Source of the DNA: a virus
Length of the DNA stretch: 47,186 nucleotides
Reading direction: 5' to 3' (one strand)
IMG/VR virus record: IMGVR_UViG_3300012521_000001
Coordinates: 1 to 47,186 of that record
Positions 3,764 to 47,186 of this stretch are shown here, in pieces. The translations under genes were made by a program, and so were the position numbers. The stretch's first letter is position 1. Each line of letters starts with the position of its first letter. The notes beneath the pieces were generated by a model that was given only the letters and a program-made list of their open reading frames with translations, ran no database searches and was not told where the DNA came from.

Positions 3764-3798
3764 GTCCGGCGCACAAGTCCGGCGCGCGAGTCCGGTGC
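3763..3798. repeat. Three direct copies of AGTCCGG(C/T)GC with 13-bp phasing
   Basis: AGTCCGGCGC at 3763-3772 and 3776-3785; AGTCCGGTGC at 3789-3798. They lie immediately after the stop codon of the hydrolase gene. Confidence 0.8.
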
Positions 3799-3820
3799 AG
3801 CGCTGGTGGATAGGGTAGGG

Positions 3821-4091
3821 TAGCCCAAAAGTACTACTCACGGGAAAACTTTACCCCGCGACCCCGTGGGATCACCCCTTTTGAAAACTTTTATACAACA
3901 AAAATATGGGTTGGATTGGTGTTATATAAGTTTATGGAAAAGGTATTCCCACGGGGTATGTGTTGAATTAATAGGCCACCGAGAATCATTAATTCCACGC
4001 TCAAATTCGCTTAGTAGAGATATTAAAAGGCAACTTTTTGCCTTTACCCCGTGGGTCCCCCGTGGGATTTTTCGGAGGTGTGTCCACGGGG
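3821..4091. repeat. AT-rich non-coding region with CTTTACCCCGTGGG / CCACGGGG iterons. Its core, 3826-3957, is homologous to 23025-23160.
   Basis: Forward CCCCGTGGG at 3862-3870, 4047-4055 and 4058-4066. Reverse CC(C)ACGGGG at 3948-3956 and 4083-4091. Shared blocks with the 23-kb locus: cgggaaaactttaccccg.gaccccgtgg, gaaaactttt, tatataa.gtt.atggaaaa, ccacggggt. The GC content is visibly much lower than in the flanking genes. Confidence 0.8.
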
Positions 4092-4281
4092 AAAAATAAA
4101 GATCATTAAGACGCATCGAGGGAGAAACTGTTACAGACGCATTGCATCTTAATTGACCAGCCTTAATTTTACTGGGCAAAATTGCCAATTTCCAGCAATT
4201 AAGTGAAAAGTAAGTTTTGGTGATTTGCGTCAAAGCCCCCAGCCTCAGCTGTGGGGATGAAGCGCCGCTCCCGTTCTGATT

Positions 4282-4309
4282 TTGCTTTCCAGCGAATGTG
4301 AGGTATAAT
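4282..4309 (+). promoter_or_regulatory. Near-consensus sigma70-type promoter (TTGCTT-N16-TATAAT)
   Basis: -35 TTGCTT at 4282-4287 and -10 TATAAT at 4304-4309, with a 16-nt spacer. Located upstream of the first early gene. Confidence 0.7.
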
Positions 4310-4311
4310 TA

Positions 4312-4483
4312 GTGTTGTCGAGGCACGATATGCGAGCTAAGATTGCGAGTAGAACACCCTGCCGGGCTCGCGTGCCTCGACAACACGCAATCGCCGGTGG
4401 GGTGTTCTGCTTTGAGGCAAGCACTCCTGCCGTCTAGAAGGACGCAGCGTTCTGGAGCATGAGAAGAAGCGGAGAATGAACTG
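4312..4483 (+). promoter_or_regulatory. Structured 5' leader or possible cis-regulatory RNA (long hairpin with pseudoknot potential)
   Basis: 16-bp stem: gtgttgtcgaggcacg (4312-4327) pairs with cgtgcctcgacaacac (4371-4386). It is extended by cgagc (4333-4337) pairing with gctcg (4366-4370). The loop segment agaacaccc (4351-4359) is complementary to gggtgttct (4400-4408). Confidence 0.55.
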
Positions 4484-6830: not shown

Positions 6831-6880
6831 AAAATAGCCCAAAAGTACTATTTTCCAAAACGGTGGGTGTAGGGTACAAT
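6831..6880 (+). promoter_or_regulatory. Promoter-operator element, degenerate member of the repeated family (AAATAG-N10-CTATTT followed by TTTCCA-N17-TACAAT)
   Basis: aaaatagcccaaaagtactattttccaaaacggtgggtgtagggtacaat. The upstream half is nearly identical to the elements at 23.2, 24.1, 25.5 and 26.3 kb. -10 TACAAT at 6875-6880. Confidence 0.65.
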
Positions 6881-14157: not shown

Positions 14158-14935
14158 GATGAGTAAACCGCAGCTGGTCTATGAGATCGAACGGCACAGC
14201 ATCAAAGCAGGGAAGTATAAGGTGCAAGTCTGGACACCGACTGTGGCGCAGGTGGAGCTAATCAGCCTCACTAACTCGCCAGCCGACACGATGGCAATCG
14301 TCACTCGTGGCTACACCGGAGTGTACTCCCCTGACTTGCCAGACAAGGATGAGCGCGACCGTCTGCTTGCCGACATTGTCAAGACCAAACTCGCAACTCC
14401 CACCGAGATGATTCACTTCACTTGGCTCATCCGGGGAGTGACCCGCGCCTGGACACACCAGGCGGTGCGGTATCGGGTGGGCACGGCATATGTCCAGGAA
14501 AGCATGCGCTTCCTGGGACACAAGGGAGTGTACCGCGTGCTGATGACTGACAAGCTGGCCAAGCACCCGCAGAGTGAGGAGGCGCAGCACTACAGCCGAA
14601 CAGTCTGCGACAGTGTGGTTGCTTATGTGGACCTGATTGACAATGGTGTGCCTGACCAGGATGCCAGGGGAGTGCTACCGACAAACATTCTCACCAGTCT
14701 GTTCTGGGATATGTCGCTGAGCACTCTCATGCATGTCTACAACACCCGCGTTTGCTGCCAAGCGCAGACTGGGGAGTGGGTGCCCATCCTGCTGCAGATG
14801 AAGGATTGGCTGCGGCAGTGCTGCCCTGAAGTTGCGGAGATGCTGACTGCTCCCATCGACCGAGGGGAGCCTTGCGGATTCAATGCCTCATTCGACCGCC
14901 CGTGCGTGTGGAAGGTGCGCGATGGAGTCAAATGA
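14150..14935 (+). CDS. thyX: ThyX-like flavin-dependent thymidylate synthase (divergent: RYR instead of RHR)
   Basis: VTRAWTHQAVRYRVGTAYVQESMRF compares with the ThyX signature R.FTHE.VRHR..S..Q.S.RY. There is also a downstream NTRVCCQAQTGEW segment (R....AQ.E). Confidence 0.8.
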   Translation: MSKMSKPQLVYEIERHSIKAGKYKVQVWTPTVAQVELISLTNSPADTMAIVTRGYTGVYSPDLPDKDERDRLLADIVKTKLATPTEMIHFTWLIRGVTRAWTHQAVRYRVGTAYVQESMRFLGHKGVYRVLMTDKLAKHPQSEEAQHYSRTVCDSVVAYVDLIDNGVPDQDARGVLPTNILTSLFWDMSLSTLMHVYNTRVCCQAQTGEWVPILLQMKDWLRQCCPEVAEMLTAPIDRGEPCGFNASFDRPCVWKVRDGVK

Positions 14936-21637: not shown

Positions 21638-21694
21638 GGTGAGAAGAGGTTGGGCTCGGTTGAACCAGAGGTGAGGCAAGGACTGGCTGGCAAG

Positions 21695-21740
<46 letters not shown>

Positions 21741-21854
21741 CAAGGACTGGCTGGCAAGGGTGAGTCTGAGGTTGGGCTGGGCTGAATAAGGGGTGAGGCA
21801 AGGGTGATGCCGAAGCAGGGCAGGTCGAGGAATAGAAAATCGAAAGGAATGCGT

Positions 21855-21959
21855 CTGCAGCATGTGCAAATGGGGACTGCTGCTGTGAAACAACATCCAG
21901 GCTACCCTTATAGCATGGATAGCCTGAAACAGCAATAATCCCCACTGCAGCAATGCAGG
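21855..21959. repeat. Intergenic repeat family R3, copy 1 (homologous to 26968-27073)
   Basis: Shared ordered blocks: CTGCA, TGGGGA, TGCTGTG, CCT.TATAGC, TAGC, AATAATC, CCCCA, TGCAGCAATGCAGG. Confidence 0.7.
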
Positions 21960-21989
21960 GAAGGGAAGGGACGCAGAAAGGGACGCAAC

Positions 21990-22880: not shown

Positions 22881-23038
22881 TCGGTGTCGCGGTGTCGACC
22901 GGCATCTGCCGGAATCGGTCGGAAATGGGCCAATTTCCAAAATTGGCCCATCCTGTTGCCTTGGCGATGTCTGCTGGAATGGGCAATCCATGGGATTTAA
23001 TATCTTCCCTAATAGTTTTTGGTGGTTGGTACTATGTA

Positions 23039-23175
23039 CGGGAAAACTTTACCCCGTGACCCCGTGGTCATGGTGGTTTCGAAAACTTTTCTACATGTTT
23101 TTTGGGGTGATGCAATGAATATATAAAGTTATGGAAAACCCATTTCCACGGGGTCAGGGGGGTAAAGTTTTCCCG
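23039..23175. repeat. Large inverted repeat: 29/30-nt arms containing CCCCGTGG iterons, around a 78-bp AT-rich spacer. Homologous to the 3.8-kb element.
   Basis: Left arm: cgggaaaactttaccccgtgaccccgtgg (23039-23067). The reverse complement of the right arm (23146-23175) is cgggaaaactttacccccctgaccccgtgg. Confidence 0.85.
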
Positions 23176-23176
23176 T

Positions 23177-23224
23177 ATATAGGCCAAAAGTACTATTTGC
23201 GGGAAAAGTTTATTGGAGTACAAT
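23177..23224 (+). promoter_or_regulatory. Repeated promoter-operator element P1 (TTGCGG-N16-TACAAT)
   Basis: ataggccaaaagtactatttgcgggaaaagtttattggagtacaat. -35 at 23197-23202 and -10 at 23219-23224. Confidence 0.7.
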
Positions 23225-23286
23225 AGGGGGTAGTGATGGAGGGCAAGAATGCCCACAGTGCCCAAATGGGCAAGGAGAAGAAGACC

Positions 23287-24015
23287 ATGGTACGGTGTGA
23301 GATCTGTGGCAAGCGTCTGACCGATCCGCTCTCCGTGGAGCGGGGCATCGGTCCCGAGTGCTACGCCAAGGGACTCTCCGCAGCAGTGGTTGCGGAGCGC
23401 TTGGCGGAGCAAGTGGTAGAGGAACTGCCGGAAGGCATGATTCCTCTCAATGAAGCCTATCGTTGGTACAAAGAGCAGACCGATATCCCACCCACCCGTC
23501 TGCTCACCGCATGTGGGGGGAATCGCCAACTAATCCCCCCTATCTCCCCAATGTTCCAGATGGTGCGCTACAAGGGCAAGCGATATCTGCCCAAGGAGTG
23601 TATCTCCCAGGAAGCGCAAGATATGCTGGCTGCTATGGGCAAGCGCAAGGCCAAGCGCAAGCGCAAGACCAGTGCCGAGACCAAGCCCGAGGCCAAGCCC
23701 GAGACCAAGCCCGAGACCAAGGCCAAGCCCGAGGCCAAGGCCAAGGCCAAGGCCAAGGCCAAGGCCAAGGCCAAGACCAAGGCCGAGCCGACTCTGTCGC
23801 TGGAGGAGGCTCCCAGCAGCATTGCGCTGCCTGGCAAGAGCTTCATCGACCAGACGACGGGCCAGACATACATCTGGCCAAGCAAGAGTGAGGTGGCGCG
23901 GATGCGCCGTGAAGAGCTTGCCGACTTGTATGAGCGGCTGCTGGGAGTGCCACCAGCGGACGCGTTCGGCCGCAAGGACTTGGTCGATGCGATCGAGCAC
24001 CTGCGAGGTAAGTAA
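23287..24015 (+). CDS. Zn-ribbon (DUF6011-like) protein with a Lys/Ala/Pro/Glu low-complexity linker and a C-terminal SAP/Rho-N-like helix-extended-helix domain
   Basis: AAGGAG RBS before ATG 23287. CEICGKRLTDPLSVERGIGPEC. KPEAKPETKPETKAKPEAKAKAKAKAKAKAKTKA. C-terminal REELADLYERLLGV...RKDLVDAIEHL. Confidence 0.7.
   Translation: MVRCEICGKRLTDPLSVERGIGPECYAKGLSAAVVAERLAEQVVEELPEGMIPLNEAYRWYKEQTDIPPTRLLTACGGNRQLIPPISPMFQMVRYKGKRYLPKECISQEAQDMLAAMGKRKAKRKRKTSAETKPEAKPETKPETKAKPEAKAKAKAKAKAKAKTKAEPTLSLEEAPSSIALPGKSFIDQTTGQTYIWPSKSEVARMRREELADLYERLLGVPPADAFGRKDLVDAIEHLRGK
23734..23775 (+). repeat. (GCCAAG)7 hexanucleotide repeat encoding (AK)n within the CDS
   Basis: Counted directly. Degenerate units extend across roughly 23641-23790. 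Confidence 0.9.
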
Positions 24016-24035
24016 TCCCTCTCTTCGCCAGACCG

Positions 24036-24063
24036 TGGCCCAGCTCAGCCTGGGCCATATTTC
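24036..24063 (+). terminator. Hairpin terminator candidate
   Basis: tggcccag-ctcagc-ctgggcca followed by tattt. Confidence 0.5.
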
Positions 24064-24066
24064 CCA

Positions 24067-24115
24067 AAAATAGGCCAAAAGTACTATTTGCGGGAAAAGT
24101 TTACTGGCGTACAAT
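24067..24115 (+). promoter_or_regulatory. Repeated promoter-operator element P2
   Basis: aaaataggccaaaagtactatttgcgggaaaagtttactggcgtacaat is identical to P3 and P4. AAATAG-N10-CTATTT palindrome. -35 at 24088-24093 and -10 at 24110-24115. Confidence 0.75.
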
Positions 24116-24167
24116 AAGGTCAGTGTTGGGGGCAAAATGCCCATAGTGTGCTAAAGGAGAAAGGGAA

Positions 24168-24461
24168 ATGACGGAGAATCAGGTGTTCGAAGTGCAGTGG
24201 TATTGCGGCGATGGCGAGTACTTTGTGGCTCTGATGGATGCCGCCACCGCCACGGTGGTGGTGCGTGGCTGGACCACCCAGCCGGAAGGCTGGTTCGAAT
24301 GGGCCAGCAAGATCGGGTCACAGTACAACAGGTTCCGTCGGCGGGGCGCAAGCCCCACCGGTGCCGCCAAGGCGGCGAGGATGGCTGTGATGGCCGCAGG
24401 GCCGAGCACGACACCGTTCATGGAGCGGTGGGAACTCGTAAAGTTCCCTCCGCTGCCGTGA
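24168..24461 (+). CDS. Hypothetical protein (97 aa)
   Basis: AAAGGAGAAAGGG RBS. Trp-rich N-terminal half. No motif recognised. Confidence 0.65.
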   Translation: MTENQVFEVQWYCGDGEYFVALMDAATATVVVRGWTTQPEGWFEWASKIGSQYNRFRRRGASPTGAAKAARMAVMAAGPSTTPFMERWELVKFPPLP

Positions 24462-24538
24462 GGCTTCGGCAAAGGCACTGCCCCTTGCGGGTGGTGCCTT
24501 CAGCTATTCTATGGAGATGCGTAGATTCGGAGGCCAAA

Positions 24539-25192
24539 ATGATCAACAAACAAAAAATGTTCGAGATCCCGGCGGAGCCAGATGCTCTGGATCCATGGGA
24601 AGTTTACCTTGACCTGTACACAGAGGGAGACCACGCTGTCGCCGGCGTCACCGTGCCCACGGCCAAGAGCTTTCGCCTGGAGATGTGGTGCGGCGACTTG
24701 GACGAGGTCGTCGCAGCGGTCTGGGATTTGCTCAGTCGCTCCGACATTGCCTATGTCCCCAACTCTGAAGTCCAGCTCCTGCTGGACGAATCCCCCTGTC
24801 CAATCATCAGCATGTCCCGGATCATCGCTGAGTCCGGCATTCGCAAAAGCAGCGAGAGGTATGGGGTGGTCCAGGACGTCCTCGCTGGCCGAATGGGACC
24901 AGCATCGCTCCAAGTCGGTCGCAGTCTAGTCCAGATGCTTCTGGCTGCTGGAACCATCCACGAGAGAGCAGTGGACTACGCGAAGGACTATCTGCTGGCC
25001 GAATGGGTGTGGATCGATGCTATCGTGACCCACTACAAAGGCCAATGGCTGATGTGTCCCGATGGCACCTACAAGGTGCGCATTCGGGGCAACTCCGATG
25101 TGGTCGAAGCCCTAGTGTATGAACTGGGCGACGACCTTATCGATGTCCAGCAGGATGGCCTAGATCTGCTACTGGTCTTCGGACCGCTATAG
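24539..25192 (+). CDS. Hypothetical protein (217 aa)
   Basis: GGAGG RBS before ATG 24539. The 24197 version is an Arg-rich alternative-frame overlap of the preceding gene. Confidence 0.65.
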   Translation: MINKQKMFEIPAEPDALDPWEVYLDLYTEGDHAVAGVTVPTAKSFRLEMWCGDLDEVVAAVWDLLSRSDIAYVPNSEVQLLLDESPCPIISMSRIIAESGIRKSSERYGVVQDVLAGRMGPASLQVGRSLVQMLLAAGTIHERAVDYAKDYLLAEWVWIDAIVTHYKGQWLMCPDGTYKVRIRGNSDVVEALVYELGDDLIDVQQDGLDLLLVFGPL

Positions 25193-25254
25193 CAATCGAC
25201 TGGGTGCTGGGGCGGGCGGCAATCCCCGCCCCACTATGCTGAAGGAGGCTGAAG

Positions 25255-25515
25255 ATGGCAAAACGATACTACCAGGCGAGACAGCGCCTCAAGAACGCGG
25301 TGCTGGAAGAGGCACTCCGTCGCATCCGGAATGGGCAGGTGGCTGGTCCGCTGAAGATCGCGTGGGTACAGGAGATTGTGGACCAACAGGTTGACCGGAT
25401 GAAGCCGGAATTGCGCAAGGAGTGGGATGCTGCCACTGAGCGCCAGAAGAAGCAGCTCGCCAGGGAGTGCTGGCACAATCTTCGTCTGGCCATCCGACTG
25501 AGTCGTGAGTTCTGA
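25255..25515 (+). CDS. Hypothetical basic helical protein (86 aa)
   Basis: GAAGGAGG RBS. It is preceded by a GC hairpin, ggggcggg...cccgcccc (25209-25232). Confidence 0.6.
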   Translation: MAKRYYQARQRLKNAVLEEALRRIRNGQVAGPLKIAWVQEIVDQQVDRMKPELRKEWDAATERQKKQLARECWHNLRLAIRLSREF

Positions 25516-25546
25516 GTGAGCTCTTCCCCACTGTGCTTTTGGCCTG

Positions 25547-25595
25547 AAAATAGGCCAAAAGTACTATTTGCGGGAAAAGTTTACTGGCGTACAAT
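25547..25595 (+). promoter_or_regulatory. Repeated promoter-operator element P3
   Basis: Identical 49-mer. -35 at 25568-25573 and -10 at 25590-25595. Identity to P4 continues about 30 nt into the leader (aaaggtagaaga.tggccc.ct.gagaggcc). Confidence 0.75.
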
Positions 25596-25652
25596 AAAGG
25601 TAGAAGAATGGCCCACTTGAGAGGCCCCAGAATGGACAAAGGAGCGAAAGAA

Positions 25653-26249
25653 ATGGCCAACAATAAGTTCCAGGAAGTGAACGTGGGGGATTTCATCACC
25701 CGTCCCGTGGATAACTGGATAAACCGAGGCCGTTTGCTGGCCAAGGTGGTGAAAGTAACGAAGACCCAGGTCACGGCCGAGGTGCTTCCCTCTGCGCAAA
25801 TCCGTGGCGGATACCAGGTGCGCATTAGCAAGCGCACCGGCAAGGAGATGGGGACTCGCTCCGCATTCTGGAGCATCACCGATGACCCGGAGCGTATCCA
25901 CGAGCTGAACCGTGAGGCTCAGCGTCTTGCCCAGCAGCGGATTGAGGAGCAGCAGCGACTCGAGTCTGAGAAGATGGCTGCAGTGAAGGCAGCCAATCCT
26001 CATGGGCTGGAGCCCACCATCCTCCCGCAGGGCATCCGTATGATTGAGTGGCAGGACCGCCTCGGGCGGTGGAACTTGCTCTTCTACGCTGTGTCAGAGT
26101 ACACTTCGTGGAGTGGTTGGAAGGGGGTAGTTATCCACCCCACCAACTATGGTCCGAACAACTACAGCGAGGGCTTTTCGATGCCATCCAGCCAGCTTGG
26201 CGATAGCGAGGAAGACGCCGTGCTAAAACTGCTGGCACGCGAGTTTTAG
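25653..26249 (+). CDS. Hypothetical protein (198 aa) with a central coiled-coil
   Basis: AAAGGAG RBS before ATG 25653. An in-frame ATG at 25608 lies inside the conserved leader, so the alternative start cannot be excluded. Confidence 0.65.
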   Translation: MANNKFQEVNVGDFITRPVDNWINRGRLLAKVVKVTKTQVTAEVLPSAQIRGGYQVRISKRTGKEMGTRSAFWSITDDPERIHELNREAQRLAQQRIEEQQRLESEKMAAVKAANPHGLEPTILPQGIRMIEWQDRLGRWNLLFYAVSEYTSWSGWKGVVIHPTNYGPNNYSEGFSMPSSQLGDSEEDAVLKLLAREF

Positions 26250-26269
26250 CACCGGCTGGTCCAAAGCAG

Positions 26270-26300
26270 CAGGCTCCCCAAAAGGGAGCCTGTTTTGTTG
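26270..26300 (+). terminator. Rho-independent terminator
   Basis: caggctccc-caaaa-gggagcctg followed by ttttgttg. Confidence 0.85.
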
Positions 26301-26303
26301 GGA

Positions 26304-26352
26304 AAAATAGGCCAAAAGTACTATTTGCGGGAAAAGTTTACTGGCGTACAAT
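26304..26352 (+). promoter_or_regulatory. Repeated promoter-operator element P4
   Basis: Identical 49-mer. -35 at 26325-26330 and -10 at 26347-26352. Confidence 0.75.
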
Positions 26353-26406
26353 AAAGGTAGAAGAGTGGCCCGCTGGAGAGGCCACCGAGCTAAGAGGAGG
26401 ACCAAA

Positions 26407-26907
26407 ATGTCCCGCAACGAGAGCCAAATTCGCAAGACCATCGTCAAGACCGCTATCTTCAACCTAACCACCCCAGTCTACACCCGAGCAGTGGACCGTG
26501 AGGCTTGCGTCAGCGAGTGTTTCATGGTCGCAATCAACGATCCGGAGATGCGTGAATACATGGCCACCCGCACCGACCGTCAGGTCGCCCGCATGGGTGG
26601 GGACGTTAAGCGGGCGATCGATCGCCATTTCGATCGTCGGATCGTTCGGGAAGTGTACGTTTCCCATAACGATCTTGGCCACACCGGCCACAAAGTCTGC
26701 TTTGAGCGCAAACCACGCGGTGGTGGAGAAACCACCGCACGGTGGTATGGTGTGGATCGGGAAATCACCGCATCCAGCCTCAAACGGCTGAACCGGGCAA
26801 TGCTGAGCATTCAGACCAGTGCCCGGATTGAAGGCATCGCAGACGCTGAGTGGGTAGTTAGCACCGGCATCTTCAAGCAGGGGATGTATATCAGAATGTG
26901 GCGCTAA
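26407..26907 (+). CDS. Hypothetical protein (166 aa)
   Basis: AGAGGAGG RBS before ATG 26407. There is an in-frame GTG at 26365 in the conserved leader. Confidence 0.65.
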   Translation: MSRNESQIRKTIVKTAIFNLTTPVYTRAVDREACVSECFMVAINDPEMREYMATRTDRQVARMGGDVKRAIDRHFDRRIVREVYVSHNDLGHTGHKVCFERKPRGGGETTARWYGVDREITASSLKRLNRAMLSIQTSARIEGIADAEWVVSTGIFKQGMYIRMWR

Positions 26908-26932
26908 CGCCAAACTCCCTCCGCTCCACTCT

Positions 26933-26962
26933 GAGGCTCCCAAGTTGGAGCCTCTTTTATTT
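26933..26962 (+). terminator. Rho-independent terminator
   Basis: gaggctcc-caagtt-ggagcctc followed by ttttattt. Confidence 0.85.
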
Positions 26963-26967
26963 GCTGA

Positions 26968-27073
26968 CTGCAATTGCTGCAGTGGGGATAGGTGCTGTGC
27001 AATAGTGCAAGAAGGTATACCTCTATAGCCTAGCAAATAATCGCCCCAGCAGCACCCATTGCAGCAATGCAGG
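26968..27073. repeat. Intergenic repeat family R3, copy 2 (homologous to 21855-21959). It contains inverted CTGCA..TGCAG motifs.
   Basis: ctgcaattgctgcagtgggg (26968-26987) and cacccattgcagcaatgcagg (27053-27073) are inverted copies of each other. The block order matches copy 1. Confidence 0.7.
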
Positions 27074-27084
27074 AAACACATATT

Positions 27085-27112
27085 TTGGTTTTTGCCAGAA
27101 TGACGTTATAAT
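27085..27112 (+). promoter_or_regulatory. Candidate promoter for the packaging/structural operon (TTGGTT-N16-TATAAT)
   Basis: Consensus -10 TATAAT at 27107-27112 in an AT-rich patch, 55 nt upstream of the terS ATG. The -35 is weak. Confidence 0.45.
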
Positions 27113-27167
27113 AGTAGCAGAGCATCGTGCATCGGCAATCCAGCATGCCGCGGACGGCACCATCCCG

Positions 27168-27758
27168 ATGGGCAATAGGACGCTTCAGACTGCGTTCGAG
27201 GCCTGGGTTGGAGGTAACTCAAAGGCGGTAACTATGCGATCGACCACGAGCAAGGATGCAATCAACACGGCGCGGCGTCGCGAGATCGTGCTCGAATTGC
27301 GCAAGCAGGGCAAGACATACCGTGCAATTGCCGAAGCCGTGAGGCAGGAGTTGGGCGACGAACTCCCAGCAGGCTGGGATGAGCGATATGCCTACAAAGA
27401 TGTCAAGCGCGAGCTGGACCGTCTGCGGGATGAAATAGCAGAAGATGCGCAGATGATCAGACAGCTAGAGCTGGAGCGCCTTGACCTTGCGTTAGACGCG
27501 GTCCTTCCGATGGTCCGCAAAGGAAATCTGGGTGCGGTGGATCGCCTTATTCGTCTGAGCGAGTCGCGCCGCAAATTGCTTGGTCTCGACGCTCCGCAGC
27601 GCCAGGAAATGGCTGGTCCTGGTGGCGAGGCGCTACAGATGAATATCGCCGGAGTGCCAGGCGCGTCGCCCATTCCGATCACTATCCTGCATGTCATGCC
27701 ACCGGCCTCGGTGCAGGAAGAGGAGTCAGAGAGTGGCGCTGACAGCAATCGCGACTGA
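27168..27758 (+). CDS. terS: Terminase small subunit (HTH-containing)
   Basis: Lies immediately upstream of terL and overlaps it. HTH-like ELRKQGKTYRAIAEAV, followed by a coiled-coil oligomerisation-like region. The start is uncertain (alternative ATG at 27234). Confidence 0.65.
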   Translation: MGNRTLQTAFEAWVGGNSKAVTMRSTTSKDAINTARRREIVLELRKQGKTYRAIAEAVRQELGDELPAGWDERYAYKDVKRELDRLRDEIAEDAQMIRQLELERLDLALDAVLPMVRKGNLGAVDRLIRLSESRRKLLGLDAPQRQEMAGPGGEALQMNIAGVPGASPIPITILHVMPPASVQEEESESGADSNRD

Positions 27759-46430: not shown

Positions 46431-47186
46431 ATGACTCTCATTAACGCACTACCATTCGACGGTGTCTCGATCAGCTCGGAGACGTGGCGGCAATTCCAGA
46501 GGCACATACTGCAGCCGATGGGCAGCAGCACCGTCAACGATGGCATTTACTACACACCGACGACTGGCCAGTTTAAGGTGACGCGCGTGAGCGCGACGCA
46601 GGTATCGGTGCAAAGTGGCGCGGGCATGGCGAACGGTCTGCCGTTCTGGTCTACATCGACCATCAACCTGTCGGTCGCAGCGGCGCACGCGACGTACACG
46701 CGCTACGACTTCGTGGTGGTGCGCGTCAACTTTATCGACAAGGAAGCGCGCGTCACCATTCTCCAGGGCACACCAGCAGCCTCGCCGGTGGCGCCGTCGC
46801 TGCAAAAGAGCGCCGCACCGTACTACGATGTGCCACTGGCACTGCTCACGGTGGCTCCTGGCTCTGGTGTGACTGATGTCAGCGACCGCCGTGAATTCAT
46901 CTCCGGTGCGTCGAGCGTGCAGCGTGTCGTTCGTAATGCTGACAGCACCACTTTGCTGCCAGGGCACATCGTCGCATGGAACCAGTTTAATCCGATCGAT
47001 GTGGTCCGCACAAATCAAGCCAGCAGCGTGTGGACTGCTGGTGTCATCGAGACGGCCATCGCACCCGGCGGCTACGGTCTGATGACGGAGTACGGTGTCG
47101 GACGCGTGCGCATCAACATGTCGCGCGGTCCCGGCGCTCGCTTCGGTACTAGCACGCAGCTCGGATTCGCCACCGAACAACCATAC
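46431..47186 (+). CDS. Tail fibre / receptor-binding protein, N-terminal part (3'-partial; continues at 1..579; total 403 aa on the circular molecule)
   Basis: My own translation from ATG 46431 (MTLINALPFDGVSISSETWRQFQRHILQPM...) is open to the window end. It joins in frame to ...PGGYGLMTEYGVGRV... at base 1. Confidence 0.8.
   Translation, partial: MTLINALPFDGVSISSETWRQFQRHILQPMGSSTVNDGIYYTPTTGQFKVTRVSATQVSVQSGAGMANGLPFWSTSTINLSVAAAHATYTRYDFVVVRVNFIDKEARVTILQGTPAASPVAPSLQKSAAPYYDVPLALLTVAPGSGVTDVSDRREFISGASSVQRVVRNADSTTLLPGHIVAWNQFNPIDVVRTNQASSVWTAGVIETAIAPGGYGLMTEYGVGRVRINMSRGPGARFGTSTQLGFATEQPY
47064..47186. repeat. Terminal direct repeat, second copy (identical to 1-123)
   Basis: 123/123 identity with the window start. 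Confidence 0.95.

Follow-up and report, generated by a model that had tools for sequence, protein, structure and literature searches.

Promoter early stem-loops (PeSLs) are known in T4-type phages, from RB49/phi1, T4/PST and KVP40/nt-1 (Arbiol et al. 2010, PMC2839356; Comeau et al. 2014, PMC4122927), and their crossovers were mapped experimentally, via mini-circles, to the interval between the -10 and the Shine-Dalgarno sequence (SD) or ATG (PMC2839356). Here we analysed a phage genome of 47,186 nucleotides (nt) (IMG/VR record IMGVR_UViG_3300012521_000001), referred to as the window, in which a promoter-like element is repeated four times ahead of six small open reading frames (ORFs). The cassette block so formed, at 23.2-27.0 kilobases (kb), lies between a replication arm and a packaging arm. 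In this block and its relatives we observe the repeats themselves, hairpins, selection on both the genes and the element, and rearrangement edges that fall in the repeats. Taking these together, we consider it probable that the locus is a PeSL-like array of composite terminator, promoter and leader cassettes in a non-T4 phage.

A promoter-like element is repeated ahead of four gene units

The 33-mer TAGGCCAAAAGTACTATTTGCGGGAAAAGTTTA is found exactly four times in the window, always on the + strand, at positions 23180, 24071, 25551 and 26308, whereas none is expected in shuffled sequences; a repeat finder groups these copies into a family of 85 nt whose members are 891, 1480 and 757 nt apart. 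The element is 45-53 nt long and has the make-up TAGGCCAAAAGTACTA-TTTGCG-N17-TACAAT. In the first copy, P1 (23180..23224, + strand), the 16-mer TAGGCCAAAAGTACTA is followed by a -35-like TTTGCG, a 17-nt spacer and a -10 TACAAT at 23219-23224. The copies P2 (24071..24115), P3 (25551..25595) and P4 (26308..26352), all on the + strand, are identical to one another from AAAATAGG to TACAATAA, and P3 and P4 share 94% identity over 85 nt, reaching into the leader. An earlier note on this DNA had described all four copies as identical, which is right for P2 to P4, while P1 carries substitutions at 2 of 45 positions. The region after the -10, where a transcript would start, shows a conserved RRGGTAGT, and every copy has a AAAATAGGCCAAAAGTACTATTTG stretch, an AGGAG-type SD and an ATG, with a fixed distance from the element to the SD and the start codon.

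A fifth copy (TAGCCCAAAAGTACTA ... TACAAT; 6835..6880, + strand) lies 36 nt 5' of the start codon of the SNF2 helicase gene, and a partial copy that ends short of a -10 is present at 3822-3853. The fifth copy shows the element to be a putative general promoter type of the replication arm. The wider grammar TTTG-N19-TAnAAT has six matches in 47 kb against 0.13 expected, all of them on the coding strand and intergenic: besides P1-P4 they are 4281-4309, which heads the first early genes, and 27084-27112, which heads the terminase operon. The -10 TACAAT agrees at five of six positions with the sigma-70 consensus, which may not be the consensus of the host.

To follow the element beyond the window we compared 22 copies from the window and seven relatives, comprising 15 distinct 45-mers. 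Of these copies, 19 have the 16-mer intact, two have a single substitution in it and one has it inverted; GTACAAT is intact in 21 copies and TACAAT in every one, while the genes flanking these copies have synonymous divergences (dS) of 0.4-1.7. The element keeps its position in relatives whose proteins are 60-80% identical, and its best-conserved part is the 16-mer, just 5' of the -35. Judged from these alignments, the element is under strong constraint. At L088:1735 the 16-mer is inverted, and the leader and gene behind it are those that in L092 follow a 16-mer in direct orientation; this suggests that the 16-mer is a separate recognition module, either UP-like or a site for a factor.

Such conservation could also be produced by a dedicated regulator, and we regard this second explanation as possible, if less so than the first. 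A phage or host activator or repressor would bind the 16-mer and/or the spacer box CGGGAAAAsTTTAC; P1-P4 and the copy at 6835 would then form one timed regulon, for example of middle genes, and recombination would be incidental. The 16-mer is better conserved than the -35 hexamer over the 15 distinct copies and occurs in either orientation. It is missing from the promoters at 4281 and 27084 and would therefore mark a separate promoter class. The spacer box is near-palindromic (GGGaAAAsTTTaCCC), has seven matches against 0.03 expected and recurs, with no -10 beside it, in both large inverted-repeat regions (3841, 23039 and, on the - strand, 23163). Set against this, no helix-turn-helix, sigma factor or other regulator was recognised among ten small early proteins or in the cassette proteins, the spacer box is poorly kept in relatives, where only GG.AAA.T persists, and the A-tract 5' of the -35 may be a simple UP element that needs no dedicated factor. 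A regulator is in any case compatible with a PeSL-like array.

Far less probable, in our judgement, is that the copies are sites acting at the DNA level and not promoters, such as replication iterons, packaging signals or integron-like targets of a site-specific or DDE recombinase. It is true that the 16-mer is found in both orientations and includes the short palindromes GGCC and AGTACT, that long elements able to form cruciforms, which carry some of the motif, are present next to P1 and in the non-coding region 3764-4483, and that the structural model of ORF3 weakly resembles retroviral integrase cores. However, every copy is on the coding strand at a constant distance from a -10-like hexamer, an SD and a start codon, the same TTTG-N19-TAnAAT grammar stands at two other operon starts, and iterons would not be spaced 757-1480 nt apart; family searches detected no integrase or recombinase, and the structural matches of ORF3 are unreliable.

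Two further origins of the element were considered and rejected. A promoter for a phage RNA polymerase was dismissed, as no such polymerase gene was found among the large genes, and restriction-site avoidance as the source of the GTAC, AGTACT and GGCC content of the 16-mer was dismissed because the counts equal the Markov expectation. An exact scan for the pattern CCAAAAGTACTANNNNCGGGAAAA gave no match in IMG/VR and JGI metagenomes, and TAGGCCAAAAGTACTATTTG gave none in IMG/VR and 185,579 reference genomes; members of the clade were seen in ENA and Logan assemblies alone.

Gene content changes at the repeats among relatives

Relatives were taken to be contigs with homologues of ORF3, ORF5 and ORF6; they are short metagenomic contigs, several of which end inside the repeat. 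Writing genes by ORF number or, for ORFs foreign to the window, by length in amino acids (aa), and a promoter copy as >, the window and L081-L084 read >1 >2-3-4 >5 >6, with L097-L099 consistent over the part they cover. The other arrangements are >1 >2-3-4 >5 >6'... >6 in L085 (joined with L093), >1 >3-4 in L086, >1 >3-4 >115-5 >6 in L087, >1 >2 >82-3-4 > in L088, 2-3-4 >5 >6 in L089, L090 and L091, 1 >82-3-4 in L092 and >107-6 in L096. Eight lineages thus show at least six architectures, which differ by insertions, a duplication and replacements with boundaries in the promoter/leader repeats.

The variable slots lie directly 3' of promoter copies. ORF2 and the 82-, 107- and 115-aa ORFs sit between genes that are adjacent in relatives; ORF1, ORF3, ORF4, ORF5 and ORF6 do not, and these five are present in every relative that covers their positions. 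The 82-aa ORF has its own promoter copy and is an additional gene in L088, while in L092 it stands in place of ORF2. The 115-aa ORF of L087 is bracketed by a duplicated leader/SD with 35 of 42 aligned columns identical, and the 107-aa ORF of L096 likewise by one with 33 of 38. None of 2000 shuffles reached the score of these duplications, and a control pair of internal gene leaders was negative.

In L085 there is, 3' of P4, an extra cassette made of the leader type that the window has at P3 and a truncated paralogue of ORF6, 57% identical to ORF6 residues 78-98, with only 27-34 codons visible. A contig from the same sample, L093, starts with a terminator like that of unit 4 in the window, followed by P4 and ORF6, and a duplicated cassette is therefore implied. 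In the alignment of L085 with the window, identity is 97-100% through P3 and falls directly 3' of it, to 60-93% immediately after the P3 -10, recovers at the 3' end of ORF5 and is lost about 30 nt after the P4 -10, where the two are unrelated. Two of the three transitions, those just after P3 and P4, are thus within about 30 nt of a -10.

The earlier note had suggested that related phages be compared for presence and order of the cassettes, on the view that novel ORFs are shuffled here. The comparison speaks for this view in large part: content does vary at the repeats and there are variable slots, but the order ORF1-3-4-5-6 is fixed and five of the six genes belong to an ordered backbone. From this fixed order and the purifying selection described below it follows that the block is a conserved backbone with few variable slots and not a region of freely shuffled ORFans.

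Contig ends fall within the promoter element in L084, L088, L090, L094 and L096; the repeat thus interrupts assemblies and biases short-read views of the locus.

The cassette genes

All six ORFs are on the + strand, and their coordinates and AGGAG-type ribosome-binding sites proved correct as first annotated. In comparisons with relatives, their ratios of nonsynonymous to synonymous substitution rates (dN/dS) are 0.17-0.35 overall, indicating purifying selection, and they are therefore real genes. ORF1 (23287..24015, 242 aa; dN/dS 0.20-0.28), whose start at 23287 is supported by conservation in relatives, has an N-terminal cysteine motif, a low-complexity linker rich in K, P, E and A, and a helical C-terminus. 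Its residues 2-28 match DUF6011 (PF19474) with 45.2 bits against a cut-off of 26.6 (E = 6.4e-12), that is, the N-terminal CxxCG...GIGPxC motif of about 37 aa is present above the Pfam gathering threshold; no function is assigned to this family, and none of the papers searched mentions it. The variable ORF2 (24168..24461, 97 aa; dN/dS 0.20-0.25) is absent from L086, L087 and L092. The remaining four are backbone genes: ORF3 (24539..25192, 217 aa; 0.17-0.30), the basic, helical ORF4 (25255..25515, 86 aa; 0.17-0.20), ORF5 (25653..26249, 198 aa; 0.25-0.35) and ORF6 (26407..26907, 166 aa; 0.24-0.25).

The linker of ORF1 is encoded at 23640-23800 by a tract of 6-, 12- and 18-nt repeats (AAGGCC and AAGCCCGAG units). 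The called length of ORF1 is 255, 259 and 263 aa in L081, L082 and L085, and the tract length varies between near-identical genomes.

Searches of the six proteins against Pfam, PHROGs, PADLOC and NCBIfam returned only DUF6011 in ORF1 and low-complexity noise, and sequence searches of the PDB with ORF1, ORF6 and an ORF3 profile gave no match. Among 5.8 billion proteins, homologues of the cassette proteins make up 3-6 clusters, so that the genes are restricted to a very small clade, and profile-guided scans for relatives of ORF3 and ORF5 found none in IMG/VR or JGI metagenomes. AlphaFold2 models of ORF3 and ORF5 were built from alignments of 5-7 sequences and are of low confidence, with a predicted local distance difference test score (pLDDT) of 64-67. 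The ORF5 model (pLDDT 67) had no fold match. The N-terminal half of ORF3 (pLDDT 64) gave weak matches to RNase H-like, RuvC and integrase-core folds, with a template modelling (TM) score of about 0.23 and a root-mean-square deviation (rmsd) above 15 Å, and its C-terminal 60 aa matched only generic beta-sandwich repeats in an exhaustive profile search. With such values we do not accept ORF3 as an RNase H-like or integrase-core protein and keep the match as a lead only. The possibility that the cassette genes are mutual paralogues was also rejected, the sole exception being the extra gene of L085 and ORF6.

By these searches the six genes are ORFans and not recognisable replication or assembly factors. 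That they have no recognisable function had been noted from the sequence, and this needs qualifying only for the DUF6011 domain of ORF1.

The selection on these genes is also what an ordinary conserved gene block with standard promoters would show, its products being lineage-specific replication, recombination or late-regulation factors, encoded between the replication and packaging modules as is usual in many siphoviruses, and the differences among relatives being due to illegitimate recombination and common phage mosaicism. The invariant backbone order agrees with this explanation, as do the dN/dS values, a composition equal to that of the replication arm and the use of the same promoter type by the SNF2 helicase gene. 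The weak RNase H-like, RuvC and integrase-core matches of the ORF3 model would suit a resolvase at this position, and mosaicism is seen elsewhere too, where the small terminase (TerS) is swapped, a TnpB gene is inserted and, in L086, the small ORFs 5' of MazG differ. We nevertheless think it unlikely. Two independent insertions are bracketed by significant leader duplications, an extra paralogous cassette has a leader swapped between units, and two of the three identity transitions of L085 are close to a -10. Moreover, no protein family, PHROG, NCBIfam, PADLOC or PDB match supplies a standard function, and a TM score of about 0.23 with an rmsd above 15 Å lends ORF3 none.

Hairpins close the units and mark the leaders

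Each unit ends in a stem-loop. Unit 1 is closed at 24035..24058 (+ strand, as are all the hairpins that follow) by a 9-bp GC stem with a poor U-tract (dG -16.6 kcal/mol, z -2.9), which lies 12 nt 5' of the P2 16-mer and is kept in L086, L087, L088 and L092. Unit 2 ends at 25533..25564 in a 14-bp stem (dG -30.6 kcal/mol, z -6.4) whose 3' arm, 25551-25564, is the first 14 nt of the P3 16-mer; terminator and promoter would therefore overlap, and the same arrangement is found in L085, L087, L088, L089 and L090. Units 3 and 4 have canonical intrinsic terminators. That of unit 3 (26268..26300) is an 11-bp stem followed by TTTTGTT (dG -27.1 kcal/mol, z -3.5), 8 nt 5' of the P4 16-mer and kept in L087 and L089. 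That of unit 4 (26933..26962; dG -18.1 kcal/mol, z -3.2) lies between the block and the terminase-operon promoter at 27084-27112. The earlier note had seen these two terminators with U-tracts after ORF5 and ORF6, and both stand; of its broader statement that the units close with hairpin terminators, the four hairpins are there, though it had missed the one of unit 2, and that of unit 1 has no good U-tract. A further, strong hairpin separates ORF2 from ORF3 (24472..24500; dG -37.3 kcal/mol for 24462-24538, z -4.2), and the same hairpin is found 3' of the alternative 82-aa ORF in L088 and L092.

The leaders carry shorter hairpins. Downstream of P1, at 23241..23272, there are two, GGGCA-AGAA-TGCCC and TGCCC-AAAT-GGGCA (dG -18.6 kcal/mol, z -3.2), followed by the SD AAGGAG at 23272-23277; in relatives the stems are kept while the loops vary. 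The P2 leader hairpin GGGCA-AAA-TGCCC (24130..24142) is weak alone (z -0.1). Those of P3 (25610..25626; GGCC(C)-N-GGCC, z -0.7) and P4 (26365..26385; GTGGCC-N9-GGCCAC, z -1.7, kept in L087, L089 and L096) have the motif TGGCC-N9-GGCC(A) in common.

Directly 5' of P1 is a long inverted repeat of about 150 nt (23026..23180, + strand; RNA dG -78.9 kcal/mol, z -10.4), a near-perfect hairpin or cruciform with a z of -10 on either strand. It is kept in L085, L086 and L088, with compensatory changes at 5 of 25 pairs, and its arms have the motif GTACTA-N4-CGGGAAAAsTTTAC in common with the promoter element, with which it would be associated as a regulatory or insulating structure.

The AT-rich centre of this repeat holds a conserved ATATAAAGTTATGGAAA. 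A shorter inverted-repeat twin is found at 3828-3965 (also 4047-4091), within a 720-nt non-coding region at 3764-4483, and the octamer CCCCGTGG has seven copies, all in the two inverted-repeat regions. These inverted-repeat elements may serve as an origin, as an insulator or as a regulator array. At 4281-4483, a promoter-like TTTG-N19-TATAAT site is followed by a strongly structured leader of about 170 nt with a long, nearly perfect hairpin (dG -74 kcal/mol, z -4.7; no Rfam match).

How the array would work and what weighs against it

A unit would begin with the stem-loop of the previous unit, followed by the 16-bp box TAGGCCAAAAGTACTA, the weak -35 TTTGCG, a 17-nt spacer and the -10 (G)TACAAT, and downstream of these by RRGGTAGT, a short GC hairpin, the SD and the ATG. 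We propose that the RNA polymerase of the host initiates transcription at every copy, with the upstream box serving as an UP-like element or an activator site, and that the hairpins, the U-poor ones presumably included as terminators, insulate the units from one another and from the terminase operon, so that four separate transcripts would be made. The cassette genes would belong to the regulatory class of the SNF2 helicase gene. As some 50-85 nt are repeated, the copies could act as patches for homologous recombination, and recombination at them would insert, delete, duplicate and replace ORFs within the backbone ORF1-3-4-5-6.

Several observations weigh against this proposal. The order ORF1-3-4-5-6 is constant in every relative where it can be seen, so that the larger part of the block acts as one fixed syntenic set. 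The 115-aa and 107-aa ORFs share the promoter of the next gene and bring no full cassette, for some inserted ORFs only one side has a copy of the repeat, one identity breakpoint of L085 lies inside ORF5, away from the repeats, and the linkage of L085 with L093 is deduced only from their common sample. As for the signals themselves, the -35 (TTTGCG/TTGCGG) matches TTGACA at only three of six positions, with the caveat that this consensus may not be the host's, and a generic sigma-70 scan does not call the P1-P4 sites. Two of the four closing hairpins have no proper U-tract. Finally, the leader motifs reported in the earlier note are there in sequence, but for three of the four leaders the hairpin is no more stable than in shuffled sequence, and strongly selected leader structures are not demonstrable from energies alone.

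A more radical version, in which a phage-borne integron-like system actively mobilises the ORF units through a factor recognising the 16-mer, the GC hairpins and the cruciforms, with ORF3 as candidate enzyme, strikes us as highly improbable. We return to the PeSL-like array and its consequences. Essentially all shuffling of the PeSL type documented to date is from T4-like myoviruses. If the proposal is true, the same organisation arose in an uncultured lineage of 47-kb phages that is unrelated to them and was found in the metagenome of a biogas fermenter and in several further samples, which would suggest a general phage route to acquire and test small accessory genes while neighbouring operons stay undisturbed. 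Two practical handles follow, namely a promoter and terminator grammar for annotating the clade, and a set of conserved (ORF1, 3, 4, 5 and 6) and variable (ORF2 and the 82-, 107- and 115-aa ORFs) proteins for screening host interaction and anti-defence activity. Unless the 16-mer proves to have a dedicated factor, the gain is incremental and not conceptual.

The phage and its setting

The window is a complete phage genome with a circular assembly, a 123-nt identical repeat being present at both ends (1-123 and 47064-47186), and all its genes are on the + strand. The lower-GC replication arm, at about 4.5-22.9 kb, encodes an N6/N4 methylase, the SNF2 helicase, a PD-(D/E)XK nuclease, an AAA_24 protein, ThyX, PolA, an AEP primase-helicase and MazG. 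The higher-GC packaging, structural and lysis arm extends over 27.2-47 kb and continues round to 3.8 kb. The GC content of the block (23-27 kb) is 0.562-0.584, against 0.546-0.576 in the adjacent 20-23 kb and 27-28 kb. No Rfam RNA family or tRNA is present in the window, and no integrase or repressor was recognised among the genes scanned.

A hyperplastic region of a T4-type genome is not the setting of this block: the phage is of 47 kb, with PolA, an AEP primase-helicase, SNF2 and ThyX, and the best cultured matches of its large terminase (TerL), all from non-T4 phages, reach 24-29% identity. A blastn search with the block found no cultured relative among 50,697 phage records. Near-identical genomes occur in at least four other samples, and the relative L085 comes from a biogas fermenter. 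The IMG/VR relatives L001-L004 have the structural arm in common with the window, the portal being 88-98% identical, and in the upstream sequence available for them (up to 2.5 kb) they carry a ParB-like methylase and a different TerS.

The GC content is 0.53-0.58 over about 7-28 kb and jumps to 0.60-0.66 over 28-43 kb, and only the high-GC structural arm is common to L001-L004 and the window. This suggests, from composition and gene content, that the two arms may have different histories. The start of the packaging operon is mosaic (window 26963-27240; L089:2571-2880; L093:660-1050; L096:930-2580; L003 and L004). An unrelated small terminase (M..LWERQxWD..) is encoded in L089 and L001-L004, and a remnant of about ten codons of the L089 type persists upstream of the window-type TerS in L093 and L096. 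In L096 an IS605-type OrfB/TnpB gene (405 aa) is inserted between the late promoter and TerS.

Near the end of the replication arm, at 21638-21989, there is a non-coding gap of about 350 nt with a (GGCT)n microsatellite (21695-21741) and flanking GGCAAGGACTGGCTGGCAAGGG repeats, and the GC skew at 21-23 kb is unusually high (0.21-0.27). The motif CCCAYTGCAGCAATGCAGGRAA, with the palindromic core CATTGC-N-GCAATG, occurs at 21941-21962, 27055-27076, 26968-26984 (- strand) and 14193-14214, with sites upstream of MazG and on either side of the terminator/late-promoter region, and could be a further site for a regulator.

Comparison with known systems

The PeSL-like organisation proposed from the sequence alone is borne out, inasmuch as the composite anatomy of stem-loop, promoter and SD/ATG described for PeSLs (PMC2839356) is present. 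As in PeSLs, the element is an intergenic composite of about 60-100 bp that comprises a stem-loop or terminator, an A/T-rich stretch, -35 and -10, SD and ATG. The stem-loop of a PeSL may overlap parts of the promoter, as the unit-2 hairpin does with P3, and two of the others end 8-12 nt 5' of the P2 and P4 16-mers; all four closing stem-loops are stable (dG -16.6, -30.6, -27.1 and -18.1 kcal/mol; z -2.9 to -6.4). PeSLs occur in multiple copies beside small ORFs of no assigned function, here four within 3.8 kb before six ORFs, and the indels and replacements in relatives have junctions inside the element, in our case in the interval between the -10 and the SD/ATG.

The differences are as plain. 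This is an unrelated 47-kb phage with PolA and an AEP primase-helicase and no T4 core genes, and the sequence of its element is unrelated to T4 PeSLs; by lineage and sequence the array is outside the T4 PeSL family. The -35 is weak, and the best-conserved part is an almost invariant 16-bp upstream box that occurs in either orientation. There are only four copies plus one, and most of the flanked genes form a conserved, ordered backbone and are not strain-specific ORFans.

Morons of lambdoid and other temperate phages, reportedly described by Juhala and colleagues and by Hendrix and colleagues in 2000 and treated also in PMC2839356, had also been put forward as a parallel. At the level of sequence the parallel is sound for units 3 (P3-ORF5-terminator) and 4 (P4-ORF6-terminator), which look like autonomous promoter-gene-terminator units. 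As to insertion between genes that adjoin in relatives, it extends to ORF2 and the 82-, 107- and 115-aa ORFs but not to ORF1, 3, 4, 5 and 6. It fails on composition, which is not deviant here (GC 0.56-0.58, like the neighbouring replication arm). Furthermore, the units have conserved flanks in common, which morons do not, and no lysogeny module is seen in this phage.

The MotA-dependent middle promoters of T4 combine a weak -35 with a conserved box. The element resembles them in pairing a good -10 with a poor -35 and in having an additional box, strictly conserved, that sets one class of promoters apart within the phage. It differs in that the box is 5' of the -35 position, does not replace it and can be inverted, and in that no MotA/AsiA-like or other activator was recognised here.

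The stoperators of cluster A and the start-associated sequences of cluster K actinobacteriophages are repressor or translation-associated sites of 13-17 bp. Here too a short conserved motif stands before many genes of one lineage and is kept across relatives, but those motifs are not full composites of terminator, promoter and leader, and we know of no case in which they bracket indels as these repeats do.

With integrons, finally, the locus shares an array of small ORFs with imperfect, inverted-repeat-containing sites between them, and an array content that varies among relatives. No integrase or attC-type sites were found here, each unit has its own putative promoter, and the rearrangements look like homologous exchanges between repeats.

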